From the NCBI GenBank assembly GCA_964372635.1, contig CAYJQW010000001.1, forward strand, positions 4,083-68,082: a DNA stretch of 64,000 nt, given 5' to 3'. Shown here in pieces: positions 1 through 20,634 of this stretch. The DNA comes from an uncultured Candidatus Saccharibacteria bacterium. Its GTDB lineage: Bacteria; Patescibacteriota; Andersenbacteria; UBA10190. Within the stretch, counting starts at the first letter, position 1; each line of letters starts with the position of its first letter. The translations under genes were made by a program, and so were the position numbers. The notes under the pieces were generated by a model that saw nothing but the letters and a program-made list of their open reading frames with translations, had not been told where the DNA came from and made no database searches.

Positions 1-262
1 CCAGGACCTAACGAGGCTTTGAATCCGTAAGGAGTGTAGCCGCCAACCTCGTTCGCAGGCGTTCATACTCGTCACCTGGCGTGACCTTCTGGGCAACTTA
101 TGGGTAAGGTGGGCTGTTGAGTGGCTACGGTCATATTTTCATGATACGGGATTTGCTCCGAATTGTCCCTAAAAGTAGTCTATTATTGGCTTATCTTAGC
201 TTTTGTATTGTATCTACTTTGCTCTAATAAGCCATATTTTAGCGTTTTGTGCCATCTGGCTA

Positions 263-291
263 TTGACATTTACATACAATAGGAGTATACT
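263..291 (+). promoter_or_regulatory. sigma70-like promoter: TTGACA, 17-nt spacer, TATACT
   Basis: TTGACA at 263-268, a 17-nt spacer, then TATACT at 286-291. No convincing ORF follows for about 1.2 kb. Confidence 0.5.
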
Positions 292-456
292 GCACCGTTA
301 CGCTAGAGATGGAGGTAACGGACGAAGCGAAGCACCTTTAAACGAGTCGCCCAAGGGCGAACCTCGCCAAAGGCGGGCCACCTTAGCAAGCCCCAAACCT
401 ACGCAAGGAAAACAGCCAAAGCTAGGCAAGGGTAAAAGAAGCCCAGATATAGTCTA

Positions 457-483
457 GCCTTCGCCAAGGCTACGGCGGGCAAG
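457..483 (+). repeat. Island motif A copy 1 (gccttcgccaaggctacggcgggcaag)
   Basis: Direct repeat of the 579-606 copy. It shares the core GCTACGGCGG with copies at 2136, 7981 and 11579. Confidence 0.6.
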
Positions 484-578
484 ACCAAGGGACACCCTCA
501 GAAATGCTCCAAAATGACCCTTGACAAGATTGACTAAGTATGCTAGGATGGCCGCAACATTAAAACACCAACAGCCCA

Positions 579-606
579 GCCTTCGCATAAAGCTACGGCG
601 GGCAAG
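579..606 (+). repeat. Island motif A copy 2 (gccttcgcataaagctacggcgggcaag)
   Basis: Identical to copy 1 at 26 of 28 aligned positions, 122 bp downstream in the same orientation. Confidence 0.6.
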
Positions 607-647
607 CCGAAAGGCACCTGAACTTTTCAATCCAAAGACGGATCATA

Positions 648-666
648 AATCAAGAGAGAGACCGGC
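648..666 (+). repeat. Motif B copy 1 (aatcaagagagagaccggc)
   Basis: Matches 1104-1124 (aatcaagagagagatcctggc). The similarity extends upstream as ggatc..taatcaag. Confidence 0.45.
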
Positions 667-781
667 AACTGCAACCAGCGCCGGGGTAGAAATACCGAAG
701 ACTGGCAAGAAGCGGTTAGGTGAAGTGTCTTCTCTCTTAAAGATTAATGACACGTCAACTAGCCGCTTCTTCTATATATGA

Positions 782-822
782 GCCAGAGATTGGGTGAGAT
801 AAAATCGCACCCAGCCTCTGGC
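782..822 (+). other. Long imperfect hairpin (GCCAGAG.TTGGGTG / CACCCAG.CTCTGGC)
   Basis: A 7+6 bp stem with an 11-nt loop, read directly from the sequence. It lies in the non-coding leader. Confidence 0.4.
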
Positions 823-1103
823 CCAAGAGAGATTGATAGTAGTTTAACAATAATAAATAGTACAGCGCTGACCAGACGGTGACCTGGGATTAGAAACCAG
901 TAGCCTGGCTATGCGGGATCGTACCAAAAGCGGCAATGTGAACAGTAGGTTCACCTTCCGCCCATGTGTCCTAACAGACCAAACACTATTTAAGCATTGG
1001 GTTGCTAGCTAGGATGCAGTGGCGGAAGAATAGTTCTTTATTGAAGCGTGTTACGGTTTTAGGCAATGAAGGGATTCGATAAACTCACCCTAAAGGGATC
1101 GCT

Positions 1104-1124
1104 AATCAAGAGAGAGATCCTGGC
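1104..1124 (+). repeat. Motif B copy 2
   Basis: See 648-666. Confidence 0.45.
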
Positions 1125-1228
1125 CTAAGATAACGTAACCCACATCAAGGTTCCCCACCTATAAACGTATAGCTGGGTCTTTCCAAGCGACTGGCATGAA
1201 CCAACGTCCTGTTGAACGATGGGCACGT

Positions 1229-1250
1229 CCTGTCGTTCACGAACGACAGG
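1229..1250 (+). other. Perfect 10-bp hairpin CCTGTCGTTC-ac-GAACGACAGG
   Basis: Inverted repeat read directly from the sequence, flanked by direct gcacg. The upstream acgtcctgt is also duplicated. Confidence 0.45.
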
Positions 1251-1503
1251 GCACGGATAACAATGTCGCTCGGCTCATCGGCATCTACCTTGAAGCTGAT
1301 GCAGTATTCAGAAACCAAGGCCTGCGTAAGCGGGCCGCAGTCCAGCACTGAGCTTTGCTCTAGTGCTGTGGCATTCCCGTAAGGGACGTGGTGCGGATGA
1401 GCGGGCTTAACCACCCGATCAAACTCAGCCGCACTCGCCCCGGCTCGTTATCTGAAGTTAACGAGCTCGTAGGGATTAACCATCCGCCTAAAAAGGAGGT
1501 GTT

Positions 1504-1971
1504 ATGGTTACTTTTACACCCCGCCTCCTTGAGGCGGATGTGTTCCCGAGCGTGCTGTTCCCGGCGCGCTCCGTGTACGTCTCGTACACGCAAGCTCAAA
1601 AGGCTTGGGGACTGGTTCGGCGAAACCAGCCGTGGGATCCGAAAAATCCCTCGGAAGGAATCGCCAGGCTGCTCCGCGCCGACGTGGCGTGGGAGCTCCT
1701 GGGTCCAGACCAGAGCTGGGATGACGTGCGGTTGTATACCGCCGTCGGATCCGCCCTGGACTGGCACCGGATCGACGGCTGGATCGAATACCGTGGAAGT
1801 CAAGTCCAGCTTGACTACACGGCCAATCCGGCCAAGCTCCTCGAGGAGTGGTATGGAGATTCACTTCTCCTACCGCCGACTCTCGAGGAGCCGTTGGTTC
1901 GGGCGAAGTTGGCCGCAGTCATTGCGGACGAACTTCGCCAGGGCATGGCAGCCCGCGCTCGACCACGCTAG
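1504..1971 (+). CDS. Hypothetical protein (155 aa)
   Basis: A strong RBS (AAGGAGGT) sits 6 nt before the ATG. The amino-acid composition is protein-like, chosen over overlapping alternative-frame ORFs that are typical of GC-rich DNA. Confidence 0.5.
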   Translation: MVTFTPRLLEADVFPSVLFPARSVYVSYTQAQKAWGLVRRNQPWDPKNPSEGIARLLRADVAWELLGPDQSWDDVRLYTAVGSALDWHRIDGWIEYRGSQVQLDYTANPAKLLEEWYGDSLLLPPTLEEPLVRAKLAAVIADELRQGMAARARPR

Positions 1972-2135
1972 CGTAGTCGAGCATCGTCCCCTCTGCATAG
2001 GCACTGCCACATTACGTGGAAATGTAGAGGTAAAAAAGTGCCATCGAGCTAACTCACAGCCGTTTCTGACTGTGCCTTAGCTCTTTCCCTAGCTTCTACT
2101 TTTTAGTGAAAGTAGGCGCTTGGCGAAGGACTCTT

Positions 2136-2157
2136 CTTCGCGTAAAGCTACGAAGGG
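2136..2157 (+). repeat. Island motif A copy 3 (cttcgcgtaaagctacgaaggg)
   Basis: Matches copy 2 at 19 of 22 positions. It lies between the 1504 gene and the terminator of the 2263 gene. Confidence 0.5.
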
Positions 2158-2183
2158 TTGTATCTTTGTAGTCTTGAAGATGA

Positions 2184-2216
2184 AACAAAAAAAGCCCACT
2201 TCAAAAGAAATGGGCT
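2184..2216 (-). terminator. Rho-independent terminator for the minus-strand gene 2263..2886
   Basis: On the minus strand, an AGCCCA / TGGGCT stem with a 12-nt loop is followed by TTTTTTT. Confidence 0.5.
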
Positions 2217-2239
2217 TATATCAGTAGTTAAACCTTGGC

Positions 2240-2265
2240 TTACCCTGAGCAACGTCAAAGGGTTA
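2240..2265 (+). repeat. Motif C copy 1 (ttaccctgagcaacgtcaaagggtta)
   Basis: Contains the ACCCT..AGGGT inverted repeat. Matches 4166-4189. Confidence 0.45.
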
Positions 2266-2886
2266 CCAGAGCTCATCATTCATGATTGAGCGGAAACGAT
2301 CTTCTTGCGAGGAAGGCTCTGCTGTACGTTGTGCTTCTCGCCAAATCTTCTTATCCAGCTCGGCGCCGGTTTCTATCGGCAGCCAGCTGATGGGCAGATC
2401 AGCCAGCGATGAAGCAAAGGTGCATAAATAGCGCCGCGTAGCTTCAGTAATTTCTACTTCATCGATTTTTTCTCCTTGCATGGGAATTTTACAGAAGTAA
2501 CGGTCGCGAATAATTGTTGTGTGATCACGCTGAATCAAGAGCTCGGCTTGATCTGGAGCAATTATATTGAGCCTATCAATTTCTGCCGCTCTATCGTCTG
2601 CTGCTGCCTGCTTGGTAAATAGCGTACCGAGCATAGCAATCTCTTTTTGGTCATTGACCAGATACAGGTTAAGACAGCGACCGGTTGAATTTTGTGGAAA
2701 CTGATATGGCTCACTAGCAAAGCAAGCGAGTTCATTTGGCGTGGTTATAGCTAACGTGTCCAGGAAATCCTGAGTGGGTTCCCAGACTAAGGCCGCACGC
2801 TCTTCATTAGTGTGAACCTCCAACAGCAAAGTGCGGCTGGCAATAACGGCCAAAGTGACATCGTAATCGTTGATAATAATGCTCAT
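2263..2886 (-). CDS. Hypothetical protein (207 aa)
   Basis: An AGGAG RBS precedes the ATG at 2886 and the terminator lies downstream. No motif was recognised. Confidence 0.5.
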   Translation of the reverse strand: MSIIINDYDVTLAVIASRTLLLEVHTNEERAALVWEPTQDFLDTLAITTPNELACFASEPYQFPQNSTGRCLNLYLVNDQKEIAMLGTLFTKQAAADDRAAEIDRLNIIAPDQAELLIQRDHTTIIRDRYFCKIPMQGEKIDEVEITEATRRYLCTFASSLADLPISWLPIETGAELDKKIWREAQRTAEPSSQEDRFRSIMNDELW

Positions 2887-3159
2887 CGCATCACGTTTCT
2901 CCTATAAAAGGGGTGAAAAGAGCAAAATGGAGTGCCCAGACTATGCCATATAAACATAAATAGCGCAAGTTCAGGTGAGACACGCCTGTGTGTAAGGCTC
3001 TTACACTCAACCGTGTCTCTCGTGTGTTTACGAGAGCGACGCGGGTTCTGCAAGCGCATCAGCATCTGCGTCGTCGTTAGTTTCTCTCCAATGAAACTGT
3101 TGTCCATAGGTAGCCATGCCTATGTGATGCGCACAACGGTTTCTCGAAAGGAGAATAAC

Positions 3160-4011
3160 ATGGCTTTTTTGACTTCGAACTTGGTTGCCCCGAAGTTGAT
3201 CTCCGAGGCCTCGGCTGAAGAGATTGAAAACGTCTCTGCCCGGCTGACGCCGGAGCAGATGGACGCTTTGAACCGCGCGGAGACGCGCCGGATCGAAGCT
3301 GCCAAGGCGCAGCCAAAAAAGGAAGAGCAGCCACGGAAGGCTGCACCCGCCAACCCGAAACCTGCTGCGTTAAACCAGCAGGCCAAGGCAGCCCGCATCC
3401 TGCGGGCCAAAGGTCACCGCGAGGCGGCTCAGGCGGTGGGGGGTCAGGTGTCCCCCCGAGAAGTTATCGTGGCCCTTGAGGCTGCGATGAGGGACAAGGA
3501 AGTCCCGGGTGGCATCCGCTTTGGGCGGATCAAGCCACTTCTCAACGAGTTCGACGACAATGAGGCGCGCGACTTGTTCACGCGATTCATGAAGGAGGTG
3601 GCGCAAGCTGCCTTCGTGTTGAACTCGGCACACCTAGCTGCCGGGCAGGCTTTCTCTGCCCAGGCAGCGCTACGCCGCGCCGCTGGCGTGCGCTTTGAGG
3701 GTCGCCACATGGCGTCCATCGAGCGCATGCTCGTAGGGAATTCACTTCCCGACGAGGCGACCCGGCCATTAGCGGATTATCCGCAACTGGCCGAGGCCGT
3801 GCCATCGGCGCTCGCGGCGGCGCCGCGACGGCAGGCTAGAACCCTGCTCACTGGCCTGACGAACCCCCTGTGGGCCATCGTCAAGCCGGCTATCGAGCAG
3901 GCTCGGCAGAGCCAGACTAGGGTTAATAACCCAAAATCTGGCTTTTCCGGTGCAAAAACCGGAAAAACCGCCCGCAAAAAGGCGGCTGCCGTGGCGCAAA
4001 AAAATTCCTAG
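3160..4011 (+). CDS. Hypothetical Ala/Lys/Arg-rich protein (283 aa)
   Basis: An internal ATG at 3160 follows a GAAAGGAG RBS. The ORF-track start at 2932 lacks an RBS. The C-terminus is basic. Confidence 0.5.
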   Translation: MAFLTSNLVAPKLISEASAEEIENVSARLTPEQMDALNRAETRRIEAAKAQPKKEEQPRKAAPANPKPAALNQQAKAARILRAKGHREAAQAVGGQVSPREVIVALEAAMRDKEVPGGIRFGRIKPLLNEFDDNEARDLFTRFMKEVAQAAFVLNSAHLAAGQAFSAQAALRRAAGVRFEGRHMASIERMLVGNSLPDEATRPLADYPQLAEAVPSALAAAPRRQARTLLTGLTNPLWAIVKPAIEQARQSQTRVNNPKSGFSGAKTGKTARKKAAAVAQKNS

Positions 4012-4079
4012 TGCAAGGACGCACTAGGTCAGGCTTTACATGTTGTGCCTGACAACAAACAATGTGGGTTTCTGAAGAT

Positions 4080-4108
4080 TGTGAAGAAAAATTGGTTTTT
4101 TTTCTTCA
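4080..4108 (+). terminator. A/T-rich hairpin terminator (GTGAAGAAAAA-ttgg-TTTTTTTCTTCAC)
   Basis: An 11-bp stem that includes a T-run, immediately after the stop at 4011. A second hairpin at 4027-4052 is GTCAGGC / GCCTGAC. Confidence 0.5.
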
Positions 4109-4165
4109 CAACTTCACGGAGATCGTCATTTGACAATCAGGTTTACTTTCAAACAAAGCCGAAGT

Positions 4166-4189
4166 TTACCCTGAGCGAAGTCGAAGGGT
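4166..4189 (+). repeat. Motif C copy 2 (ttaccctgagcgaagtcgaagggt)
   Basis: Matches 2240-2265 at 21 of 24 positions. Confidence 0.45.
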
Positions 4190-4383
4190 GGTTTGCGTGA
4201 AGGAGACGTAGTGCTCGTGAGTTTTTTTACTCATGTGCATCCGCCCCCTTCGTGGTTCGAAGGATAAGGCCAGCTATTGTCCGTACCTCAATTGCTGGAA
4301 GTGTTCATTTTTTCTCCTTGGGTTTGCCATTCCCAAGGCGGTACGAGATACGTTCACCTTGAAGAAAAAGAAAGGAGAACACT

Positions 4384-5202
4384 ATGGCAAAAAATCTGTG
4401 TTTACGTGTGTCTCGACACACAAACCAGGTCGAGCCGCGCCTAGCGGCGCTGCGTCCCGTCTTCGGATTGGACGTAGAAATACATCATGAGGATGTACAA
4501 TACCGCGGTAATCCGCGACAGGCCATACAGGCTGTCCTTGACCGACTGAAGAGTGAAGGCCACCAGGTCGTCGGGGTCGAGGTGGTCGGCGGCGCCGACA
4601 TCCTTGAACAGCTCGTCGGCCCAAACGGCTTAGAGCTCCCTGTATTGCAAGCGGAATTTGCCCGCGACGTCGAAGGACAAATCAAGACGGCGGGCAAAGA
4701 AGCTGGCAGTGGCCGAGACGTATTTGCCTTTGGGCGATATGTCCAGGTCAAACGAGCTGGTGTTAACAAGCGCCCGTTCGAGGCAGCTGATCTACCCGTC
4801 TCGGGGTCAATCCGCGTGGGTTGGATCAGTCGCGACACGGATGAGCAGCTCGTTGACATGCGCCGCCAGGCGCTCGAGCATCTTCTACCGGGTCGGTCGG
4901 TCGAGCTGGTCGTCTTCGACTGCAAATTCGGAGATGACCCATTAACGGCCATCAAGGCGGCGTTGCCTGATGGTCTACACGCCCTGGACCCCGGCGCTGG
5001 CTTCGTTTACACGAAGTTGGTCGGCGACCGCGGGTCAAGGTTGGGAGTACCGGTTTTGAACGCTCGCTTTGAGTGTGAGCCGGGAAGCCGCCGGGCCAAA
5101 GTTGTTGGCCAGGATTCTCGTGGACGTGATATCCTCGCGTTTACGGGATACGACTTGGTCGAGAGCCTCGTGCTCGAGACCGAGCCTCTTGTTGGGTCAT
5201 AG
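4384..5202 (+). CDS. Hypothetical protein (272 aa)
   Basis: An AAAGGAG RBS precedes the ATG. This is the first gene of the + strand run. No motif was recognised. Confidence 0.55.
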   Translation: MAKNLCLRVSRHTNQVEPRLAALRPVFGLDVEIHHEDVQYRGNPRQAIQAVLDRLKSEGHQVVGVEVVGGADILEQLVGPNGLELPVLQAEFARDVEGQIKTAGKEAGSGRDVFAFGRYVQVKRAGVNKRPFEAADLPVSGSIRVGWISRDTDEQLVDMRRQALEHLLPGRSVELVVFDCKFGDDPLTAIKAALPDGLHALDPGAGFVYTKLVGDRGSRLGVPVLNARFECEPGSRRAKVVGQDSRGRDILAFTGYDLVESLVLETEPLVGS

Positions 5203-5222
5203 GGCTCAGCAAGCTGTTAAAT

Positions 5223-5254
5223 TAGGGGAGTGTTGGTTTCTAACCTCCCCTCTA
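5223..5254 (+). terminator. Terminator-like hairpin (TAGGGGAG ... CTCCCCTCTA) followed by a T-rich tract
   Basis: A 7-8 bp GC stem, then ctttgttcctctc. It lies between the genes ending at 5202 and starting at 5325. Confidence 0.3.
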
Positions 5255-5324
5255 CTTTGTTCCTCTCAAATCATTTTGAGATGTGCAATGTTGATAAGTT
5301 TTCAAAATTCCAAAAAAGGAGGAA

Positions 5325-6269
5325 ATGATGAAAATTCAGATCCAAAAAAACGCCGAGTTTAAACTGCTTTATTTTGAACTCAGCGTCTGGGGAGTCAACC
5401 CCAGTGTGGTCGCCCATAAAATCAATGAGGTGGCCGAGCAGCTGGCTGGACCGGAAACGGTGCTGCTGCGCGGACAGGGTCCGGTGTGGGTGTACGCGAT
5501 GCTGACGCACGCGGCCCATGCTTGCCCCAATGTGGCCACCTTCGAGCCTCGCAAGGAAGGGTTCGTGGTGGCAACGTGTCACAACGGCCGTTGGCTGCCG
5601 GGCGAGGTCATTCCTGCTGCCACCATCGGTATGATGGTGGATGGCGGGAAAATCGTGGGTGGTGACGAGTTCATGGAGCGACCACGGTTGGTCATCTCCG
5701 TGGGCGGTCCTGCTCACTCCGGCAAGTCAATCTTTCTGGCCGAACTGTACCGACAGCTGCTGACCAGAATGCCCGGTGAGGTATTCCTCCAGCGGGCATG
5801 CCCAGATGGCGAGGGGATGTGGTCGGCGGAGTCTGACCCCACCTTGGCGCAAGCCATTCGCCAGAAGGGCAAGTTCACGGAGAATTTCTGCTCATGGTTG
5901 GCCGATGCCATCCAGGGACTCAAGCGGGGTTTCAAGATCACCCTGCTCGACTTGGGCGGCAAACGGTTGCCACCCAATGACGAAGTTCTTCAGCATTCCA
6001 CCCATCTTCTGGTTCTTTCCTCCAACGAGGATGAGACCAAAGCCTGGATGGAGTATGGGCGCGAGCACGGCTGCGAAATCATCGCTGCTTTTTCTTCTCG
6101 CCTCCTCAAGCTCGAGAGCGGTGAGCTTGATGCAACCGTCCGCTCCTCGGTGAGCCTGACTGCCGAGCCGGTACAAGGGGAAATGGTGAATCTGGACCGT
6201 GGTGGTCCGGTCACTCCCTATCAGGAAGCTATCAGCCAATTTGCCGACTGGTTGATCGCCAAGGTATAG
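5325..6269 (+). CDS. Two-domain P-loop NTPase: an unknown ~130-aa N-terminal domain plus a kinase-like P-loop domain
   Basis: AAAGGAGG RBS. A Walker A motif is present in VISVGGPAHSGKSIFLAELY, and a Walker B-like ITLLDLGG follows. The N-terminal domain (KLLYFELS...GQGPVWVYAMLTHAAH) was not recognised. Confidence 0.6.
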   Translation: MMKIQIQKNAEFKLLYFELSVWGVNPSVVAHKINEVAEQLAGPETVLLRGQGPVWVYAMLTHAAHACPNVATFEPRKEGFVVATCHNGRWLPGEVIPAATIGMMVDGGKIVGGDEFMERPRLVISVGGPAHSGKSIFLAELYRQLLTRMPGEVFLQRACPDGEGMWSAESDPTLAQAIRQKGKFTENFCSWLADAIQGLKRGFKITLLDLGGKRLPPNDEVLQHSTHLLVLSSNEDETKAWMEYGREHGCEIIAAFSSRLLKLESGELDATVRSSVSLTAEPVQGEMVNLDRGGPVTPYQEAISQFADWLIAKV

Positions 6270-6408
6270 TCGGTAGGTTTCTTTTCCGGTTTGCATGTTT
6301 CTCTAGCCTTAAAACATGCCTGATCCGAGAGTGCGTACTCTCGCTGACGAGTCTTAAAAAGACGAAATCAGAAACTAGCACGTTTCCAATTGAAACGGAG
6401 ATGCTGAG

Positions 6409-6753
6409 ATGAAAATACTGTGGATGTCGCGTCATACGCCAACTCCCCGGCAGCTTCAAGCGCTGCGGGAGAGACACGGCGAAGACACGGTTGTGGAGCA
6501 AGAATCCAAACCGTTCGATGACGCGCGGCAGATCGCCCGTCGGTACCGCAGCGGTAGCTATGACGATATTGTAGTCGTGGCACCACTTTCGGTAATTGAC
6601 GTTCTGTGCAAAGAAGGCATTCAGCCTCTTTGGTCAGAGGCAGCCGAGGAAAACGATCCGAAAAAGATTGAATTCCGCGGTGCCCGCGGACAGGGCTATC
6701 GTTTCGTTCGGTTCCGCCGCATCAAGTGCGTGCGGATTGAGTTCGAAGACTGA
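6409..6753 (+). CDS. Small hypothetical protein (114 aa)
   Basis: A GGAG RBS is present. The stop lies 22 nt upstream of the AAA+ gene start. The N-terminus, MKILWMSRHTPTPRQLQAL, looks alpha/beta-like. Confidence 0.5.
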   Translation: MKILWMSRHTPTPRQLQALRERHGEDTVVEQESKPFDDARQIARRYRSGSYDDIVVVAPLSVIDVLCKEGIQPLWSEAAEENDPKKIEFRGARGQGYRFVRFRRIKCVRIEFED

Positions 6754-6774
6754 TTCCAAACAAAGGAGAAAACC

Positions 6775-7989
6775 GTGAACGATTTGTTGCAGAAGGCGAT
6801 CGCTCTGGCGCCGAAAGTTCAGAGCACTGCACATGACGTGCAGACCCGGCACATTGGACGCAGCGACGTGGTGCAAGCCGCGTGGCTGTCACTCGTGTCG
6901 GGCCGTCCCGCGTTTTTCTTGGGGAGCCCCGGTATTGATAAAACCGGGACGATCCAGGACATGGCGCGGCGGATTGGCGGAGCTGTCTTCTATGACGTGC
7001 TCATGCCGACGATTGTTTCAGTGGAGCAGCTGCTCGTCGAGTCTACCTCGATCGAGGAGGTGCCCGCTGCCAACGGCGGCAAAGCCATCCGCACCCGTGA
7101 CACGCTCGGACGGGCAGCGCTGGCGCACCTGCTCTTCGCTGATGAGATCTGGAAAGCGGAACCTCGCGTTCTGCAGACCCTGATCGACTTGAGCAAGGGC
7201 GACGGTGTGCGACATGAAGGTCAGATGGTAAAAACACCACTCCTGGCTTTCCTCGCTGCCAGCAACGAACTGCCGGAACCCGAGGGCAACCTCGGTGCCG
7301 TGTGGTCCCGCATGACCATCCGTGTGGTGGTCAACCCGCTGGATCGCGCGGGCAAGCAGTCGTTGGTCAAAGCTCGTCTGAACCGGAGTGCCAACAGTGT
7401 TTCGTCTGCAGCTCAGCTCACGCTGGCTGACGTCGAAATGCTGCGGGCCGCCCGGCGTCACGTTGATGTTCCGCAAGGTGTCGTTGATACCGTGCTGGAC
7501 ATTTACCAGGAACTGCTCGACGACAAGTCGGCAGATTTTTCCTGGGCGTGGTCAGACGATCGCCGCTTCGGACGCGTGTTCGATGTACTGCAGGCCAAGG
7601 CACTGCTTGACGGCCGCACAACGGTCGGCAAGCACGATGTGGCGGTGCTGGAGTGGCTGCTCTGGGATATTCCCGAGCACATTCCGCTCGTCAAAGCCAA
7701 GCTCGCGCCGTACTGCCGGACGTCGCTGTCTGAGGCAGTTGAAGTGGTCGATGCTCTGCTGTCCCCCAGCGGAGTGGTCGAAACGGTTCGCAAGGGGGAT
7801 CGGCTGAAGGGTGTTCAGGCCATCACGCAGTGTGAGGCCGCCCTTTCCGAACTCAAGCGTCTCCAGAGCGAGGCGGACAGTGTGATGTCTTCCAAGATTG
7901 CTGACCTGGTTAGCCAGGTGGAAGCGGTCAAGCAGGACGTCTTCGCTGTTGTGACCGGGGCGCGAAAACCCCAGCCGGCCTCCGCGTAA
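6775..7989 (+). CDS. MoxR-like AAA+ ATPase (AAA_5 type)
   Basis: GTG start after an AAAGGAGA RBS. Walker A is GSPGIDKTG. Walker B is LLFADEIWKAEP, followed by the VLQTLIDL helix. Sensor-1 is LAASNELPE. The C-terminus has a coiled-coil extension. Confidence 0.7.
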   Translation: MNDLLQKAIALAPKVQSTAHDVQTRHIGRSDVVQAAWLSLVSGRPAFFLGSPGIDKTGTIQDMARRIGGAVFYDVLMPTIVSVEQLLVESTSIEEVPAANGGKAIRTRDTLGRAALAHLLFADEIWKAEPRVLQTLIDLSKGDGVRHEGQMVKTPLLAFLAASNELPEPEGNLGAVWSRMTIRVVVNPLDRAGKQSLVKARLNRSANSVSSAAQLTLADVEMLRAARRHVDVPQGVVDTVLDIYQELLDDKSADFSWAWSDDRRFGRVFDVLQAKALLDGRTTVGKHDVAVLEWLLWDIPEHIPLVKAKLAPYCRTSLSEAVEVVDALLSPSGVVETVRKGDRLKGVQAITQCEAALSELKRLQSEADSVMSSKIADLVSQVEAVKQDVFAVVTGARKPQPASA

Positions 7990-8007
7990 AGCTACGGCGG
8001 CCAAGGG
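7981..8007 (+). repeat. Island motif A copy 4 (tccgcgtaaagctacggcggccaaggg)
   Basis: The motif's TAA is the stop codon of the AAA+ gene. Its 3' end runs into the GGGAGG RBS of the VWA gene. Confidence 0.55.
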
Positions 8008-8015
8008 AGGTAACC

Positions 8016-9686
8016 ATGAACGAGAAAAAACTTAAGTCTCTCTCGAGGCAAGAGTTACAAAAGCTCTTGGTGTCGGACGCGGATGCTTTCACAGCATTGC
8101 GTTATCTGCGACACCGAGAGGCAGTCCCGGTGCTTCCCGAGCTCGAGGAGCAAGGACAGGATGTTCTTCCCGGAAGCGAAGGAGTGCTCGCGGATCTCTA
8201 CTACGGATTGTGGAATCCGGAGCCTACCCTCAAGGATGAGGTAGCGCCGGATCGTCAGTACTGGCAGCAAATGTTAGGCCAAACGATTGAAACATCGGCC
8301 TATCAAGAGCTGCACGCGGCCACGCAACTCAAGGAGCTGCAGTCAATTCTCGGGACAATCACCATGGGCGAATCTGTCCTGGCGATGGTGCCGAAGAAAG
8401 ACCAGCAAAAACTCCAAGAGGTGCAGGAAGCGTCCGAAGACGCCAAGGATTTGGCGGAAACAGCAGCAGAGGCCGAAGCAGCAGCGCAAGCTGCCCAGCA
8501 GTTGGCTTCAGCCGCCGCCAAGGCTATGGCCGACAAGGATGCTGTCCAGCAAGGTTCGGGCTCGCCCGCCGGAGCGCAAGCGAAGGCGGGTCAGATGGAC
8601 CCAAAGCAAGCACGAGAGTTGGCCAATGAGTTGGCTTCGGCCGCCGCCAAGGCTATGGCCGACAAGCAAGCAGCTCAGGAGTTGGCTCAAGAAGCTAAAG
8701 ACCGTGCCCAAGAACTTTCTAAGAAGTTACTGGGCAAGCCGGGTAGTGAGCAAGCGGAGCAAAAACTTCGTGAGCTCACCCGCATCGGTTTACAAGCCGC
8801 GCGTAACGCCCAAGCTAAGGTGGAGGAGGTTTCCGAAACCATCGAAGCCTGGGGTTTGGAGCAAAGTGAGCTGACACGCCAAGGGATTCCCGAGGCGCTG
8901 GCGCTACTTCAGCGCATGAAGCGCAATGCAGCGCTCAAGCAGTTCGCCGGACTTCTCGGCCGCCTTCGCAAGATTGCGGCTCGGAAGGCTCGCTCTAAAA
9001 CAGCCGGAGAAGGAGTGCGGGTCACGGTTCCGGAAACGGGCCGGGATATTCGCCGCGCTCATAGCTCTGAGCTGGTTGCGCTTGTTCACCCAGCACTCCG
9101 CGTTAAAGGATTGACGCGTTGGGCACGTGGTGAACTGCGGTTGGTTGGTCAGCGCACGAAGCAGAAGCTTGGTCATGGACCGGTCATCGTCTGTGAAGAC
9201 GGATCCGGTTCGATGGAAGGAGCCAAGCAGCAGTGGGCAAAGGGAGTGACACTGTCACTCGCTCACTATGCGAAACTCCAAAAGCGGTCGTTCGGGTGGG
9301 TACTCTTTGATAGTGCTGTAAAGCAATCAAGGAATTATCCGCAAGGACGATTGACTGCCGAGCACATGCTTGAACTGGCCGAGTCGCGGGCCGGTGGCGG
9401 AACTGACTTTGAGTCACCGCTTAGAGCCGCCATCGAAATGATTCAGAAGGAAGGCCTTAAAAAAGCCGACATCTGCTTTATCACTGATGGTGAGTGCGCA
9501 GTCAGCGACGAGTTCCTTCGGGAATTTCTGGCGGTCAAGAAGACGTACGAGGTCAACGTGTTTACAGTTCTCTGCGATGTTGGCTCGACGTCTGACGCGA
9601 CTGTTCAGCAGTTCTCGGATCAAGTGGTTCGCGCTTCAAGCTTCACGGCAGAAGAAGCTGAGGTTGCGGTGTTTGGTTCTTTATAA
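8016..9686 (+). CDS. VWA-domain protein with a MIDAS motif and an Ala/Gln-rich coiled coil
   Basis: GGGAGG RBS. The C-terminal domain has the VIVCEDGSGSM MIDAS motif (DxSxS) with the later conserved T and D residues (GGTDFE, FITDGE). The central segment contains an internally duplicated LASAAAKAMADK. Confidence 0.75.
   Translation: MNEKKLKSLSRQELQKLLVSDADAFTALRYLRHREAVPVLPELEEQGQDVLPGSEGVLADLYYGLWNPEPTLKDEVAPDRQYWQQMLGQTIETSAYQELHAATQLKELQSILGTITMGESVLAMVPKKDQQKLQEVQEASEDAKDLAETAAEAEAAAQAAQQLASAAAKAMADKDAVQQGSGSPAGAQAKAGQMDPKQARELANELASAAAKAMADKQAAQELAQEAKDRAQELSKKLLGKPGSEQAEQKLRELTRIGLQAARNAQAKVEEVSETIEAWGLEQSELTRQGIPEALALLQRMKRNAALKQFAGLLGRLRKIAARKARSKTAGEGVRVTVPETGRDIRRAHSSELVALVHPALRVKGLTRWARGELRLVGQRTKQKLGHGPVIVCEDGSGSMEGAKQQWAKGVTLSLAHYAKLQKRSFGWVLFDSAVKQSRNYPQGRLTAEHMLELAESRAGGGTDFESPLRAAIEMIQKEGLKKADICFITDGECAVSDEFLREFLAVKKTYEVNVFTVLCDVGSTSDATVQQFSDQVVRASSFTAEEAEVAVFGSL
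8502..8666 (+). repeat. In-frame 36-bp direct repeat inside the VWA gene (8502-8537 and 8631-8666)
   Basis: The two copies match at 35 of 36 nt and are spaced 129 nt apart. Each encodes LASAAAKAMADK. Confidence 0.7.
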
Positions 9687-9695
9687 GGTTTCTGT

Positions 9696-9724
9696 GAGAC
9701 TAGATGTCTGCCGCATCTAGTCTC
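9696..9724 (+). other. Perfect 11-bp hairpin GAGACTAGATG-tctgccg-CATCTAGTCTC
   Basis: It starts 10 nt after the VWA gene stop. It has no U-tract, so it is either a rho-independent-like structure lacking the tract or a protein-binding palindrome. Confidence 0.45.
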
Positions 9725-9815
9725 CTCTGTCTCCCGGTGTGTTACTGGGACTGATGAGACTTACAAAGTCGAAACAGAGGACATTTACAACATTCCACGA
9801 CGAAAGGAGCCTACC

Positions 9816-11408
9816 TTGGCGTCCCAACTTATCGTTTCGCTGGAAGCCAGGGAAGGCAAAAACCCTGGTGAGGCGATTGGTACTTACCAAAGGTGCCACA
9901 TCGTCTTCTTGCCCCACGGGACGCCGGTCGACGTCACTGTCAGGGTTGTGCTGGAAGAAATCACAACTAAAAAAGACAGTGCCGGTCGGACGATGTACCG
10001 TGGCGTGCCAGCCCCGGTTGAGTACAGCGATCGCTGGAAAAACAATGGCGACGGAACGATCTCCAAGATCACCGTCTCCAAGGACTGGCTTGGTACTGAT
10101 TGCGAGGAAGGCATCATTGAAACACGCCAACTCGCAACACGTGAGGGTGCTCCGTATACTCGAACTGAGCGTCAGGTACGCTGGGGTTCTACCTTGGCAG
10201 CCTGCACTGTTGATGTCGCTGACATCACGACCATTCCCACGGAAGTGGAGATGGTGCAGAACGGGCAGCTCGGCTGGCGAAAAACCAGCGAGCGGGAGGA
10301 GAAATCTTCATGCTCTGTGTCAGTCACGGACGTGCGAGTGACGAGCCTGGACAGCACTGTGTGGCAGTCCTCGTATCCGTCTGAGTGGCAGCTTTCGGCA
10401 GCAGTAGACCATGATGGTACAAGCATCTCGGTGCGTGTGCCGTGGTCGAATGCACCGAAGGAAGTGCGCGAGCGGATCGAGAATCGCTACCCGGTCTGCG
10501 TCTGTGGTCGCCAGCGTTACGACGTGCAAAATTCCGACGGCTACCTCAAGTGCGAGAAGTGTCGGGAAGAAGAGCACTGCGTGCGTTGTGGCAAGCAGGC
10601 AAAGGTTGCGGTCATCAGTAGTCGCTTAATTTGTGCGAACTGCAAACCGTATGAAGAGCAGGAACAACTCGTTAATCGAGTTTGCTCTGTTCAACAGCGG
10701 CAAGCACTAGCGCAACAAGCGACGCGGCTCTTGGCAGGTAATGCCGTGCCGCGCGAAGCTGGTGAAGCGATCATGCGCTCTACGCTTGGTCACGTTGAGC
10801 CGGAATGGAAACGAAACGACCTCGCACAGAAACATGCCGGGTACGCCTGGTACTACTTCTGCGATGAGGGCGTCTACGGTTCCAAGTTTCCTTCGGCGGC
10901 TCTGCAGATTCTGCAGGGATTGTCGGAGGCATCCGGAAACGGCGTGGTCGAGTTGGTCGCATGGCTGACAGGCTACCAGAAGGTTGATGACTGTGAGCGG
11001 TATGGAGATTTCTTCTGCCGCACGCAGGTGAGGGGAGAGACTGTCACTCCCACCTTGACTGAAAGCAGCCTGCAACGGCTGATCTTGACAGTGAAGCTGC
11101 GAGGTTCAGAAGCTGATCGCATCGAGGTATTGCAAAAGTATCGGGCTATGACCGAAAGGCCGTACCCTGATGCCGAGCAAACAAGAGCAGTCGCAGATAT
11201 CCTGAGCAGCGATGCGCAGGACTATGCGGCGGCACTGGCCAAGATGCGCGAGGCGGAAGAGCTTCGTATGGCACAAGAGCAGAGGAAGCAGCAAAAGCTT
11301 TTTTCTTCTCAGTCAACACCTGTTACTCCCACCGATAAGGACGAGAGTAAGCAGCGGGGACTGGAAAATCTGCTCAACAAGTGGGGCGACCCCCACAAAA
11401 AACAATGA
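9816..11408 (+). CDS. Hypothetical 530-aa protein with an N-terminal TRAM-like beta-barrel and a Cys4 zinc ribbon
   Basis: TTG start after an AAAGGAG RBS. The N-terminus GEAIGTYQRCHIVFLPHGTPVDVTVRVV follows a TRAM-like pattern. A CxxC-(13)-CxxC cluster sits at residues ~230-250. Additional CxxC pairs (CVRC ... CANC) follow within ~30 residues. The C-terminus is a Gln/Glu-rich coiled coil. Confidence 0.55.
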   Translation: MASQLIVSLEAREGKNPGEAIGTYQRCHIVFLPHGTPVDVTVRVVLEEITTKKDSAGRTMYRGVPAPVEYSDRWKNNGDGTISKITVSKDWLGTDCEEGIIETRQLATREGAPYTRTERQVRWGSTLAACTVDVADITTIPTEVEMVQNGQLGWRKTSEREEKSSCSVSVTDVRVTSLDSTVWQSSYPSEWQLSAAVDHDGTSISVRVPWSNAPKEVRERIENRYPVCVCGRQRYDVQNSDGYLKCEKCREEEHCVRCGKQAKVAVISSRLICANCKPYEEQEQLVNRVCSVQQRQALAQQATRLLAGNAVPREAGEAIMRSTLGHVEPEWKRNDLAQKHAGYAWYYFCDEGVYGSKFPSAALQILQGLSEASGNGVVELVAWLTGYQKVDDCERYGDFFCRTQVRGETVTPTLTESSLQRLILTVKLRGSEADRIEVLQKYRAMTERPYPDAEQTRAVADILSSDAQDYAAALAKMREAEELRMAQEQRKQQKLFSSQSTPVTPTDKDESKQRGLENLLNKWGDPHKKQ

Positions 11409-11578
11409 AAAATATTCTTGTTGGAATTGTTTGTTCCATCAAGCAGGAAATTCTGGGAAGCGCCTGGCATTATGCAAAAGCTTCCCTTCTTCTTACAGTC
11501 AGCAAGTATTGCTTGTCGGCTGTAATCAAGAAATACTACATGTAGCCGCTATGAGGCTGCATAGTCAGCGTCTTCCAC

Positions 11579-11599
11579 CGTCGCGTAAAGCTATGGTGG
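11579..11599 (+). repeat. Island motif A copy 5 (ccgtcgcgtaaagctatggtgg)
   Basis: Core cgcgtaaagcta. It lies in the GC transition zone at the right edge of the island. Confidence 0.45.
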
Positions 11600-12141
11600 A
11601 CGCCGTGGGAATCGAATGATTAAATCGATGCGATCCGTCCGCCAAAAAAGCGGATTCTATCTCTCTCTTGATCCCGTAAAATCGCCGTTGGCGGTCACGG
11701 GAGGTAACAAAGATTTGATGATTCGTATAATTTCTCAGGCACTGCTGGCTTGCAGCCTTGTGGCGGTTATTTTTTATTTTGCCCTTTGTGTCCGGGTTTT
11801 TTATCTGGCTTTTCCGAAATTCGGTATTGCCAGTTCGCCGGTTACTTGCTCTAATCCCCCAGCGCCAAAGGCTTCGGAGGGACACAGTAAGGTTCTAACT
11901 TGCTTCTTAAAGGCGGACTTTCTATTAAGAGAAGAGAGGTATCTCCTCTCTCATGACGTTTGCTACTCTCACTGCTCTCACCTCATTCAGTTTCCTCAGG
12001 TTTCGAGATGAACTAGAAAATTCGAGTCATATTAATTTTACATTACTAAATGGTGGCTGACCCATTCCCTACCCTGACTCCATTACCTACCCCGACTGTT
12101 TTTGGTTTATTGATCTTTTCGATACACTATAGAGTAAATTC

Positions 12142-12492
12142 ATGCCTGACATCATTCTCATTAAAAAACAAATCAGCCGAGAAAAGCTTAAAGAGATTGC
12201 GCAGCTGCGCTTCGGTGACTTGGTTAAAGCGGTTGTTGATATTGAGAAAAATATTATGGCCATTGGCGGTGAACTTCATGCGGACGAAGAAGCATTTCTA
12301 CTTGATAACGGATCTGAACAGAAAAACCTATGGGGTATTAATCTTTATCCTGAACTTGCACTGCCCGATATGCTTGAGTTTGATTCTATGATTAATATTC
12401 GGCCACAATCAGGTAATTCATCTCGCAATATCGAAGACTCGGAAATAAAGCAAAAGATAACTGCCCTAGTTGGCACGCTAATCGAGGAATGA
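12142..12492 (+). CDS. Conserved small hypothetical protein (116 aa)
   Basis: A low-GC ORF. It is the first gene to the right of the island. Confidence 0.45.
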   Translation: MPDIILIKKQISREKLKEIAQLRFGDLVKAVVDIEKNIMAIGGELHADEEAFLLDNGSEQKNLWGINLYPELALPDMLEFDSMINIRPQSGNSSRNIEDSEIKQKITALVGTLIEE

Positions 12493-12495
12493 TAT

Positions 12496-12807
12496 ATGGA
12501 TTGGGCAACATTAACTATCGCCGAGCAACTGGGAAATATTGGGAGTGAATTCGAACGAGCAGTTCGCTGGAAGCAGCGTGGCAGGCAGGCTTTCGCCTGG
12601 AACGCAGCCGTGCGGACATTAGCCCAGCTTGATAAAACTCTGACCGATTCGCGCCACGCTGGTCATCGGCGGCGAGAGATCGCACGGTTGCGCGATGAAG
12701 TGTGCGACGTGCTATTTTCTGACCAACTGAAAACTCAATCTGCACAGCAGCTCCAAAGATATTTCATGGCTTTTGCAACTGCTGCCCGTAAAACTTCTCG
12801 TCCATAA
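12496..12807 (+). CDS. Hypothetical helical protein (103 aa)
   Basis: GAGGA RBS. It starts 4 nt after the previous stop. Its GC (~52%) is higher than its neighbours. Confidence 0.45.
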   Translation: MDWATLTIAEQLGNIGSEFERAVRWKQRGRQAFAWNAAVRTLAQLDKTLTDSRHAGHRRREIARLRDEVCDVLFSDQLKTQSAQQLQRYFMAFATAARKTSRP

Positions 12808-13092
12808 AACTATCTTAGACCGCTGATTATGGCTAGATTTATGTAATTGCGAGCAATTTTATTAAAGGCACTCTCGAGTACCAAGGATAAGAATTTAAAT
12901 ACACTGACACTTACTTTTTGATAACTTCAATGCGTAAATTGCTGAGGACGTAAAAAAATTTAACCTAGATTGGTCAGCGGTTGACAAGCAGTCTAAATTG
13001 ATACACTTTTTTTAAGTCTTGCTATTTAAGTGGTAAGTGTTCTGTTCCAGTCAAATCCCAAATAATTAATGTGAAGAAGAAAGGAGTGCCCT

Positions 13093-13296
13093 ATGGCAAT
13101 TTGCACAAAATGTATGCAAAAGGGAGCCATGTTTTGTGGCTCAATGATCTGTCCGTGCGAGGAAGGTAAAAAATGTGCCGGTGATGGTACTCGACCAAAC
13201 ACCGGGGTTCGTATCTGCAAGGCATGTTCTTTAAAACTCAAGCAATGTGAAGAGTGTCGGGCAAAGCTAACCGAAGCAGAACTTCAAGCCCATTAA
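13093..13296 (+). CDS. Small Cys-rich protein (67 aa, 10 Cys)
   Basis: AAAGGAG RBS. Paired CxxC motifs (CTKC, CKAC, CEEC) are visible in the translation. Confidence 0.45.
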   Translation: MAICTKCMQKGAMFCGSMICPCEEGKKCAGDGTRPNTGVRICKACSLKLKQCEECRAKLTEAELQAH

Positions 13297-13450
13297 GACA
13301 TTCATGACTTCAGTTCCCATCATGACAAAATTGAATGATGGGATTTTTATTTCCCGTAAAATAAGTGCACATTTTTTAATGACAAATTTATCACGGTTAG
13401 ATTAGTGAATAAAAAACCGCACGTTGATCCGTGCGGGTATAAATTTGTCC

Positions 13451-13726
13451 CTATTTTTTAGCTCGGCGAGAGCAGCTAGAAAGCTCACATTGTTGACGAT
13501 GAATATAACGACGGCAATTTCGAAGCAATTTTTCAAAAGAGCCAATCATCTTACCGGCCGGTTTTTGCTCCGGCAACACGGCATAAAGTACAAGATCGTT
13601 ATGCCAGCAACGAGCATTCTCTTCGGCGTCTCTGTGCCGACGGATAGAGTGTCTCAGTCTCATCACTTCGCGTCGTAGTTGCCCGATAGTCATTTTTTTA
13701 ACATCAATGTCTTGCCGGATGAACAT
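13451..13726 (-). CDS. Hypothetical protein (91 aa), possibly the 3' part of a frameshifted gene
   Basis: It overlaps the upstream minus-strand ORF by 23 nt in another frame. Confidence 0.35.
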   Translation of the reverse strand: MFIRQDIDVKKMTIGQLRREVMRLRHSIRRHRDAEENARCWHNDLVLYAVLPEQKPAGKMIGSFEKLLRNCRRYIHRQQCELSSCSRRAKK

Positions 13727-14264
13727 TCCTATCTCCTTCGGACAAGAGGGACGGCATAAAAATATATACTATCTCTATACCAAGACTTTGCGCCTGTTCG
13801 TGCTCCCAAGTAGCGCCCTCCGATGTCTCCCAACCAGGCATGAAATAAAGCTGGTCGACTAAGCCGGATTGAAAAATTGGCAGGTAAAACTCATTGAGAA
13901 GCTGATTATTTTGCCGAGAACCCCACCTGTTCTGAACGATGCGGAAAATGTGTTCTTGAAATGGCATCTGGTCAAAGACAGTAAGGCCTCTTTTCATGAG
14001 AAGGCCAATAACGGCATCAAAGAATTCAATGTTTTTCTCAATACTGCCCAGACCTCCCGTTGAAATGGGACCGCATACCTCGCTTATCGGTTTCGGCATC
14101 TTAGCTAAGACATTTAAGGCAATAATTGCCAGGTCTGAAAATGTGCTAGCGGAAAACAAAGATAATTTGTCCTGCTGGGTCCAATATTGTTCGTTGCGCT
14201 GCATGTGCTTTGTCTCCAGGCAAGTGATTTCTAGGGTAAAGAACACGAGTATCAATGATAGCAA
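13704..14264 (-). CDS. Hypothetical protein (186 aa)
   Basis: Protein-like composition. The start may be an internal Met at MQRNEQYW. Confidence 0.4.
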   Translation of the reverse strand: MLSLILVFFTLEITCLETKHMQRNEQYWTQQDKLSLFSASTFSDLAIIALNVLAKMPKPISEVCGPISTGGLGSIEKNIEFFDAVIGLLMKRGLTVFDQMPFQEHIFRIVQNRWGSRQNNQLLNEFYLPIFQSGLVDQLYFMPGWETSEGATWEHEQAQSLGIEIVYIFMPSLLSEGDRNVHPARH

Positions 14265-14511
14265 TGATGCTGCCCAAGGAAAAGTCTGTTTTCAGAAAAC
14301 GTGTCTTGTTACAAGTCTCCATAACTACTGTTTGAAATTATGCTAAATAAGTAATTTCCAAATAATGCTCCCTTTATCCTTGTGTCAATTACTTAATTTA
14401 TGACTGTCGGAATATTTTTATATATAATTCTTAAGGCATAGATGTTTTTTTCGAGACATATATTATTGATCTACATTGACTGGTTAATCTAAAAATGGGC
14501 ACACTGCTAGC

Positions 14512-15639: not shown

Positions 15640-15697
15640 AGCCACATCAGGCAACCAAACACAGGAATCTGTGACGATGGATAAAAATTGGACATCA

Positions 15698-18046: not shown

Positions 18047-18106
18047 TTCTAGATAATATCAGATTGTTCGCCATATTAAGGAACTTATTCATTAGGCTGG
18101 AAAAAC

Positions 18107-18622: not shown

Positions 18623-18799
18623 GGTGGTTTTAAATTAAGTTAGACGTACCTATTGGTGATCTCGCTTGTGAGATTAAAGTGTGAACGGCGCTTTATGTTT
18701 TTGTATAAGTCCTTGCCATAAGATGGCGCTTAGGGCATTGTAATCTGGCAGTACTATCTAGTTCTTTTGCCTAATGGACAAATTTTTAGGGAGGAAGTT

Positions 18800-19249: not shown

Positions 19250-19503
19250 TTTTCTGGCTAAGACAAAAAACAAGACCGCACTTTCCCAATAATATTCTAT
19301 AGCTATTCTCATGAAGACGACTCGTGTCGTCTTTTTTTGCGAATCCTTTGACGTGAATGTGATTCAATCTTGATTAGATTATTGTCCACACGTCTGATGG
19401 ACATTTTTAATGTGGTGGTAGTACGATTTGAACATGCTGTAGAGTGCTATTCTGCACTCTTTGGAACGTTCTTTTTAACAGTCTCAAAATGGAGGACCAT
19501 GCT

Positions 19504-20112: not shown

Positions 20113-20140
20113 TAATCCCCAGGTTCGCCCCTGTGTTCGG

Positions 20141-20186: not shown

Positions 20187-20236
20187 GAATTTTAACCCTT
20201 GACAAATAGCCGAGTGTTATTATACAGTCACACGTT

Positions 20237-20632: not shown

Positions 20633-20634
20633 TC

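Follow-up and report, generated by a model that had tools for sequence, protein, structure and literature searches.

This report concerns an island rich in guanine and cytosine (GC) at the left end of a 64,000-nt stretch of contig CAYJQW010000001.1, from an uncultured Candidatus Saccharibacteria bacterium; the whole stretch is hereafter called the window. Nine open reading frames (ORFs) lie in the island, and the rightmost five encode a Csx3 domain fused to a P-loop NTPase, a conserved protein of 114 amino acids (aa), a MoxR-class ATPase, its VWA partner, and a large protein with Zn-ribbons. Promoters, a candidate small RNA, and a recurring hairpin accompany them. Gene content, base composition, and the occurrence of the same cassette in other genomes belonging to the candidate phyla radiation (CPR) accord with window positions ~260-11,790 being a genuine, horizontally acquired chromosomal island with a CPR-wide cassette, a reading that is probably correct, and with a mechanism that we infer to be one of conflict or defense.

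Genes of the cassette

The cassette fills the right-hand part of the island. A MoxR-class AAA+ ATPase of the bpMoxR type (6775..7989, plus strand) was identified by PF20030 at 5.2e-19, above the gathering score of 27, by AAA_lid_8, and by RavA at 2.4e-28. It is directly followed by its VWA/MIDAS partner (8016..9686, plus strand), in which a helical coiled-coil N-terminus precedes a C-terminal VWA domain with the MIDAS motif DGSGS. The last gene encodes the large cassette protein of 530 aa (9816..11408, plus strand), whose N-terminus is a TRAM/S1-like beta-barrel and whose C-terminal half is helical, with beta-rich domains and conserved Cys pairs (Zn-ribbons) as well, and with no close match among solved structures. 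An intrinsic-terminator-like hairpin, GGGAAGC...GCTTCCC followed by TTCTTCTT, lies after the large gene (11455..11494, plus strand) and is conserved in L008, a related island described below. Upstream of the ATPase is the gene for the 114-aa protein (6409..6753, plus strand), which shares 50–79% identity with its positional counterpart in three related loci (L009, L011, and L008).

The first gene of this group encodes a Csx3 domain of the Crn3 ring-nuclease type fused to a P-loop NTPase ("Csx3-AAA"; 5325..6269, plus strand), recognized by Pfam Cas_csx3 at 1.4e-12 and by PADLOC Csx3-AAA at 2.9e-41 (residues 37-308), with the Walker A sequence GGPAHSGKS. It is a neighboring gene, unfused to MoxR, VWA, or the large protein. 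In the comparison of its Csx3 domain with AF1864 in the PDB (8.6e-8), H57, H60, R71, and H80 are retained and D69 is replaced by E; in the Crn3/Csx3 ring nuclease, residues matching these five are reported to be either essential or conserved without exception (PMC7371418).

Within the VWA gene, a 57-nt direct repeat (window 8493-8678) encodes a duplicated ...LASAAAKAMADK... segment. A Ro60/TROVE-like reading of the VWA protein had been prompted by the nearby structured RNAs and was rejected on its predicted structure and a lenient Pfam scan, there being no TROVE (HEAT-ring) domain N-terminal to VWA.

Occurrence of the cassette in other genomes

Homologs numbered 34 for the large protein and at least 245 each for MoxR and VWA; among those of MoxR, P0035-P0038 are close copies at 82–97% identity. 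The original prediction, made from the letters of the window, had proposed a look at the nearest taxa of the island proteins; all named homologs proved to be from Patescibacteria (WWE3, Jacksonbacteria, Liptonbacteria, Parcubacteria, and "Patescibacteria group"). With nine more loci (L008, L009, L011, L094, L095, L097, L099, L102, and L103), the comparison takes in ten including the window. In all ten the genes for MoxR, VWA, and the large protein occur in this order and on one strand; ahead of them there usually come Csx3, accompanied by the P-loop protein or not, and a protein of ~100 aa. In several relatives the Csx3 and P-loop domains are encoded by separate genes, and by Pfam Csx3 is absent or unrecognizable in L094, L097, and L103, MoxR, VWA, and the large protein being invariant. 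Identity to the window in L008, L009, and L011 was 72–80% for MoxR, 63–78% for VWA, and 45–71% for the large protein, and MoxR identity across all ten loci was 60–80%.

The chromosomal settings differ. In L009 the cassette lies between murG and murC, in L011 it follows tRNA-Ala/Phe/Gly, and in L095, L099, and L103 it stands beside toxin-antitoxin modules. Cassette GC was 55–62% at every one of the ten loci, with MoxR GC at third codon positions (GC3) of 0.66-0.83, and in eight of them the flanks on both sides had 34–50% GC (L095, for instance, has 57% vs 34%, and L097 has 60% vs 43%). The same cassette at unrelated chromosomal sites of many CPR lineages, always at 55–62% GC, therefore suggests lateral entry within the CPR gene pool. 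Comparison of the window with L008 shows conserved ends, a conserved cassette, and different cargo, the pattern expected of a transferable unit. The cassette was absent from the Saccharibacteria VanW-neighborhood loci examined, as judged by island proteins in L014-L020 and by the hairpin model described below in L015, L016, and L019.

Several features near the cassette in these relatives were noted. A divergent TrmB-family regulator lies upstream of it in L094 (2974-3762), L097 (1417-2175), L099 (428-1219), and L102 (5174-6079); the four genes are 25–34% identical to one another and of host-like GC, and each is set apart from the cassette by a long stretch in which few or no genes are called. 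XerC/D-type tyrosine recombinases occur in L102 (1939-2859) and L103 (1304-2227), 3-8 kb upstream of the cassette, so that Xer genes are near it in two unrelated loci, commoner than chance would suggest for genomes of ~1 Mb. They were considered as island integrases and set aside; they have host-like GC and 61% mutual identity and are probably housekeeping genes. Perfect 68-nt repeats at both island ends in L009 were likewise tried as att sites and proved instead to belong to what looks like a promoter/operator unit in three copies (2561-2624, 3026-3095, and 13004-13070), each upstream of a gene. The unit has inverted arms of 17-20 nt around a 30-nt AT-rich spacer, and two copies are 100% identical over ~68 nt; the set suggests island-wide co-regulation in L009.

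Base composition and limits of the island

The island measures ~11.5 kb at 55–62% GC, against 39–47% in the core to its right, or 0.57 vs 0.44 overall. Per kb, GC was 0.46-0.61 over window 1-11,000 and 0.387-0.466 for each kb of 12,001-64,000, and in a 300-nt profile the island reached maxima of 0.62-0.67, with spacers between genes lower in GC. GC3 averaged 0.63 ± 0.08 (standard deviation) for the nine island ORFs and 0.39 ± 0.04 for the 36 core ORFs compared. Measured in 2-kb segments, the distance of tetranucleotide usage from that of the core gave z = 7.7-19.8 for starts from 1 to 10,001, z = 2.2 for the segment starting at 11,001, and ~0 from 12,001 on. In the island proteins Ala made up 11.5% compared with 7.9% in the core, Ile 3.9 vs 7.6%, and Arg 7.4 vs 5.8%; Ala, Arg, Glu, and Gln were increased and Ile, Phe, Asn, and Lys decreased. 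The GC contrast and the amino-acid shift reported earlier are confirmed by these data, and both measures that had been put forward as checks, tetranucleotides and codon usage, deviate in the island, with tetranucleotide usage core-like from 12,001. The impression of a "mixed" core was mistaken: the core is uniform at the kb scale, and the samples at 27% and 53% GC that gave that impression reflect the noise of 60-nt sampling.

The left edge had been thought to lie beyond the window. It is probably inside, as window 1-450 has 44% GC and DNA homology with L008, the closest related island, in a different host context, begins at ~260, right on the -35 box of a near-consensus promoter (263-291). 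On the right, where the end had been put at 11,450, the homology runs past the conserved terminator at 11,455-11,494 and a hairpin copy and through a terminal segment (11606..11790, plus strand, defined by the alignment to L008 and the composition profile) before it ceases at ~11,790, with GC beyond at core level. An ORF that the Logan annotation calls across this end (11,616-12,011) is probably spurious. Immediately to the right of the island (window 12142-12807) are a DUF5674 gene (2e-36) and, 4 nt later, a 103-aa ORF with raised GC (0.52), which together resemble a small two-gene module in a variable region.

An independent view of the assembly came from the Logan assembly of run ERR3478686, in which exact-protein look-ups returned two contigs matching the window. 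L001 (8,478 nt) corresponds to window 8,195..1 plus 286 extra bases on the left. ERR3478686_76984 (44,974 nt, containing L002/L003) corresponds to window 8,634-22,492 at 99.94% identity and crosses the right junction; its 8 mismatches identify it as a different assembly. The gap between the two (8,195-8,634) falls on the 57-nt internal repeat of the VWA gene and is an ordinary de Bruijn graph break. Moreover, a GC-rich cassette with AT-richer flanks on both sides is present on single contigs, 175-258 kb long, that other projects produced (L009, L099/L100, and L102).

The recurring hairpin

The original prediction had pointed to a recurring 22-nt motif in the island, and the motif is real: an 18-nt version matches four times where 0.04 matches are expected. 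It consists of a GC-rich stem of ~8 bp and a conserved loop, CGC-R-TAAAGCT (variant CGCCAAGGCT). In 11 copies from six loci the stem shows covariation, with five pairs carrying changes on both sides and none of 500 shuffles reaching the observed score or the observed percentage of paired cells. A covariance model (R1) found seven copies in the island, all on the plus strand and starting at 452, 574, 2,129, 7,973, 8,506, 8,635, and 11,572. The first (452..484, 40.4 bits) has the CCAAGGCT loop variant, the second (574..607, 45 bits) is an exact match to the motif, and the third (2129..2162) scores 36.3 bits. The fourth (7973..8006, 41 bits) lies across the MoxR stop codon, directly upstream of the ribosome-binding site of the VWA gene. 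Two hairpin-like copies inside the VWA ORF (8506-8538 and 8635-8667; 37.2 and 36.7 bits) are within the 57-nt internal repeat, each scoring as a full match to the motif, and the copy numbered fifth outside that ORF (11572..11605, 39.1 bits) is the outermost on the right.

In the 52-kb core R1 made one weak match (53886-53932, 21 bits) that overlaps a tRNA cluster region and is probably tRNA-stem noise; the cluster, at 53551-54566 (53.5-54.6 kb), contains one minus-strand tRNA-Asp and two plus-strand tRNA-Met(CAT) genes. Copies of the hairpin were also found in L008, L009, L011, L094, and L099, with L094 and L099 having weaker matches ~410-660 nt into the VWA gene, in its N-terminal part. There was no copy in L103, and ~300 kb of CPR loci unrelated to the cassette gave no match at E <= 0.01. 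In the window, as in L009 and L099, the GC-rich block is enclosed by the outermost copies. Judged by these sequence matches, the hairpin is specific to cassette-bearing islands among the loci scanned. It could work at the level of RNA, as a leader or as a site for processing or protein binding, or at that of DNA.

Left end, cargo genes, and flank

Two promoters and a candidate small RNA are predicted at the left end of the island. Promoter P1 (263..291, plus strand) reads TTGACA-17-TATACT, matches 11 of 12 consensus positions, and marks the conserved left island end. Promoter P2 (521..549, plus strand), TTGACA-17-TAGGAT with an extended -10 TG, matches 10 of 12 and by alignment is a partial duplicate of the P1 unit. 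The stretch after P2 (554..780, plus strand, ~225 nt) is a candidate island-encoded small RNA, with the hairpin motif at its 5′ end, a long terminator-like stem at its end (707-719/759-771), and a U-rich tail. Its minimum free energy is -82.6 kcal/mol (z = -5.3, with none of 200 shuffles equally stable), and it is homologous at the DNA level to L008 1486-1800. Rfam had no family for the left non-coding region or for the hairpin.

Four cargo genes follow, none with a detected family and none present in the related islands that were compared. They encode proteins of 155 aa (1504..1971, plus strand; GC 0.62), 207 aa (2263..2886, minus strand), 284 aa (3157..4011, plus strand; Ala-rich with a basic tail), and 272 aa (4384..5202, plus strand). 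The 272-aa protein was considered as a tandem duplication of the 114-aa protein, which BLASTP did not support (E = 0.36). The genes had been described as packed on one strand, and this is borne out for eight of the nine ORFs; the other, the 207-aa ORF, is on the minus strand with host-like GC (0.47; GC3 0.46). An exact copy of it is on L001, and a terminator-like hairpin at its 3′ end (2192..2217, minus strand) has an 11-bp stem and then a T run; the gene may have been inserted into the island later or may derive from the host. In line with the earlier statement, family scans found no housekeeping genes in the island. Core genes are of that kind (prfA, dnaE, thrS, and pheT).

Left of the window, the extra bases of L001 contain a tRNA-Tyr(GTA) at -286..-215 relative to the window start (L001 8409-8478), with its 3′ end toward the island; L001 terminates within this tRNA, the 3′ part being present. 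The earlier statement that no tRNA was recognizable is thereby overturned, as one lies 215 nt left of position 1. It had also been suggested that a second boundary be sought upstream of position 1. That search reached the tRNA-Tyr, and the left island end is no further left than this gene, though the end itself is probably within the window at ~260. The conserved island end is ~475 nt downstream of the tRNA. The DNA from tRNA-Tyr to ~260 has 44% GC and holds ORF remnants in one frame broken by stop codons, possibly a decayed, toxin-antitoxin-like gene. On the basis of one marker, the flanking VanW protein, which is 68% identical to a protein of an uncultured Candidatus Saccharibacteria metagenome-assembled genome (MAG), the host is most likely a Saccharibacteria-like CPR bacterium.

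Origin of the island

The island is read as an acquired element because of its composition, its non-housekeeping cargo, its position by a tRNA and possible toxin-antitoxin debris, and the different sites that the cassette occupies in other CPR genomes. The original prediction had offered an acquired element of phage or plasmid derivation, of which the first part is supported and the second is not, as discussed below. Several observations weigh against acquisition or against a role in defense. Scans with Pfam, PHROGs, NCBIfam, and PADLOC found no recombinase family among the island ORFs, and no transposase was found in the island. The 3′ end of tRNA-Tyr has no second copy in the window at <=3 mismatches, the 286-nt left flank shares with the window only chance words of 10-11 nt rather than an att-type direct repeat, and the repeat list of window 1-13,000 contains the hairpin motif and no att-type repeats; the earlier finding of no integrase and no att repeat is upheld by these family scans and repeat searches. 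With integrase, transposase, and flanking direct repeat all missing, the argument for mobility is one of distribution and composition. An empty-site search, consisting of one scan of genome contigs and one of metagenomes with the flanking VanW protein as query, turned up no empty site among relatives: the VanW proteins returned were <=69% identical, and the 80 metagenome loci that carry such relatives (<=64–69% identical) have no synteny with the window flank. The assignment of the host depends on this same single marker. The star-like MoxR identities (60–80%), close to the 61% of the nearby Xer pair, would also fit long vertical residence. L008 and L011 each have one GC-rich flank: their left flanks (L008 1-2400 and L011 1-4600, with MurL in one and gyrA/S1 in the other) equal the cassette in GC (0.58-0.67), and their right flanks have 0.42-0.48. 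Either these are GC-rich hosts with foreign right flanks or the islands there are larger, and the pattern may point to GC-rich CPR lineages, such as the Liptonbacteria host of L011, as a source. With regard to defense, the Csx3 gene is the sole defense-related PADLOC call in the island, and no type III CRISPR-Cas or cyclase was seen next to any cassette copy.

Among the alternatives, the one that fares best, though we regard it as rather unlikely, is an old, mostly vertical CPR module that is not recent here and whose GC would be maintained through biased gene conversion or through selection on RNA structure or codon choice. In its favor, the star-like MoxR identities are comparable to that of the Xer pair of L102 and L103, a TrmB-family gene is upstream in four loci, GC3 is high at every locus regardless of host GC, and structured RNA elements lie inside the island. 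However, the sites are unrelated (murG|murC, tRNA clusters, toxin-antitoxin hotspots), the window and L008 differ in cargo but have conserved ends, adjacent TrmB genes share no more than 25–34% identity, and the cassette is missing from the Saccharibacteria VanW-neighborhood loci searched with the island proteins and the hairpin model.

A remnant of a prophage, phage satellite, or integrated plasmid, with the MoxR-VWA pair serving virion or element assembly, has a smaller chance of being correct and is in our view unlikely. It draws on matches of VWA to phrog_24053 (3e-58) and of MoxR to phrog_19600 (1e-29), on MoxR-VWA pairs ~35% identical in Bacillus phage 0305phi8-36 and Moorella phage MTATph1, on the nearby tRNA, and on the jumbo-phage literature, which treats such a pair as an assembly chaperone (PMC7824862). 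The PHROGs matches, however, are to one ATPase family and one family of unknown function only. Genes for capsid, portal, terminase, tail, lysis, replication, or an integrase are missing here and from the gene tables of the nine related loci, and the island has no other structural, packaging, or recombinase genes. IMG/VR scans with the VWA and large proteins were empty, with no close VWA relatives, and the large protein was found neither in phage and plasmid collections (tblastn) nor in a viral structure library (BFVD fold search). The phage or plasmid derivation offered earlier is not sustained by these results.

The idea that the island is instead a counter-defense island of a mobile element, with Csx3 as an anti-CRISPR against type III cyclic-oligoadenylate signaling and the rest as maintenance genes, is highly unlikely. 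Csx3 does retain H57, H60, R71, and H80, no CRISPR-Cas gene is adjacent, and viral ring-nuclease anti-CRISPRs such as AcrIII-1 are known (PMC7371418). Against this, Csx3 is absent or unrecognizable by Pfam in three loci where the core triad is invariant, and a mobile-element backbone is absent. Type III systems are, in addition, rare in CPR genomes, which also counts against it.

Finally, a chimera, raised in the original prediction as a join from binning and considered here as a GC-rich contig of another organism fused to a Saccharibacteria contig in assembly or binning, has next to no probability: the compositional break is sharp, the island is placed at the window start, and the Logan contigs stop inside the island (~8,195 and ~8,634) and in the tRNA, but the internal break coincides with the VWA repeat, the same GC arrangement recurs on the 175-258-kb contigs of other projects, and a binning chimera in particular is refuted because binning joins no sequence inside a contig and the junction is repeated on the separately assembled 44,974-nt contig.

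Proposed function

Returning to the acquired island, its layout is that of a self-contained rightward transcription unit, with two promoters and the candidate small RNA at the left, then the four lineage-specific cargo genes, the cassette, and a closing terminator. By analogy with NorQ-NorD, RavA-ViaA, CbbQ-CbbO, and the pair of the ATV virus (tail protein), a MoxR hexamer with the VWA protein as adaptor would remodel a dedicated client, for which the always-adjacent large protein is the obvious candidate. The TRAM-like domain and Zn-ribbons suggest that the large protein may bind RNA, plausibly the island hairpin in transcripts, and the Csx3 domain may sense or degrade a signal of the cyclic-oligoadenylate type or RNA. 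The role favored for the module, again by analogy, is that of a conflict or defense system dependent on nucleoside triphosphates, because bpMoxR-vWA modules have been proposed as threat-sensing conflict systems (PMC7159879, PMC13622651) and Csx3 is named as one of the effector domains of such systems (Kaur, Burroughs, Iyer, Aravind 2020, eLife, PMC7159879).

Genomic islands of Patescibacteria (PMC12455944), MoxR-vWA systems, and Csx3-AAA as families are already known. No paper was found in the searchable literature that ties the cassette, the hairpin, or the uniform GC-richness to CPR bacteria. It is possible, and we suggest it tentatively, that the cassettes form an undescribed CPR-wide family of self-contained modules with their own promoters, small RNA, covarying hairpin that tends to enclose the GC-rich block, and invariant MoxR-VWA-Zn-ribbon triad, moving among very different Patescibacteria without a known recombinase and holding GC3 at 0.66-0.83 in genomes of 34–50% GC. 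If true, there are two options: a mobile element of a new kind, whose GC-rich reservoir or replicon is unsampled, or an RNA-centered defense system, likewise new, with actively maintained composition. The puzzle of composition, that ten cassettes diverged to 60–80% identity all keep such GC3 in AT-rich genomes, can be tested with existing metagenomes.

What began as one odd GC-rich block has become a family with at least 245 ATPase homologs and ten loci of equal gene order and GC anomaly. Most CPR/Patescibacteria are uncultured, their genomes are tiny and streamlined, and the genes they retain or exchange inform on epibiotic lifestyle and on conflicts with phages and hosts. The cassette would serve as a recognizable marker of lateral exchange in the CPR gene pool, and it may represent a new MoxR-VWA system, one whose third component is RNA-binding-like and whose Csx3 lies away from CRISPR loci. 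There is a practical warning as well, in that composition-based binning and contamination filters would tend to drop genuine segments of this kind.

Comparison with known systems

Hundreds of genomic islands have been reported in Patescibacteria MAGs (PMC12455944), and the island resembles tRNA-associated genomic islands in its deviant composition, non-housekeeping cargo, tRNA proximity, and patchy distribution. It differs from them in having no integrase and no repeat of the tRNA 3′ end, and in starting ~475 nt from the tRNA. The type III Csx3-AAA accessory genes (Shah et al. 2018, PMC6546367; PADLOC PDLC01045) have the same two-domain architecture as the island protein, in which the catalytic and ligand-binding residues of the Crn3/Csx3 ring nuclease (PMC7371418) are largely kept; unlike them, it has no cas genes or CRISPR array beside it. 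No other Cas families were present in the island or in the gene tables of the nine related loci, which likewise lack cas genes and arrays by their Csx3, and window 1-13,000 contains no array-like repeats.

Within the annotated phage and plasmid collections searched, the closest VWA relatives are in the pairs of jumbo phages (0305phi8-36 gp66/gp63 and MTATph1), at 35% identity over half the length of the island's VWA protein, with phrog_24053 matching over the full length. Those pairs and that of ATV belong to viral genomes of 60-220 kb and are thought to aid virion or tail assembly, whereas the island has no viral genes. For RavA-ViaA, NorQ-NorD, and CbbQ-CbbO, the known clients (LdcI, Frd, NOR, Rubisco) are not nearby here, and the client proposed is instead the large protein.

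There is a parallel in organization with the MoxR-vWA-beta-propeller ternary systems, given the bpMoxR match of 5.2e-19, the vWA/MIDAS gene next to it, and a third, large protein that is always adjacent. The island lacks a beta-propeller, and its core proteins contain no recognized effector-associated or effector domain. Its hosts are unicellular CPR bacteria with tiny genomes, which were excluded from the statistics of PMC7159879. Its third component has Zn-ribbons and a TRAM/S1-like N-terminus, and the module as a whole takes the form of a GC-rich island with an RNA hairpin of its own.

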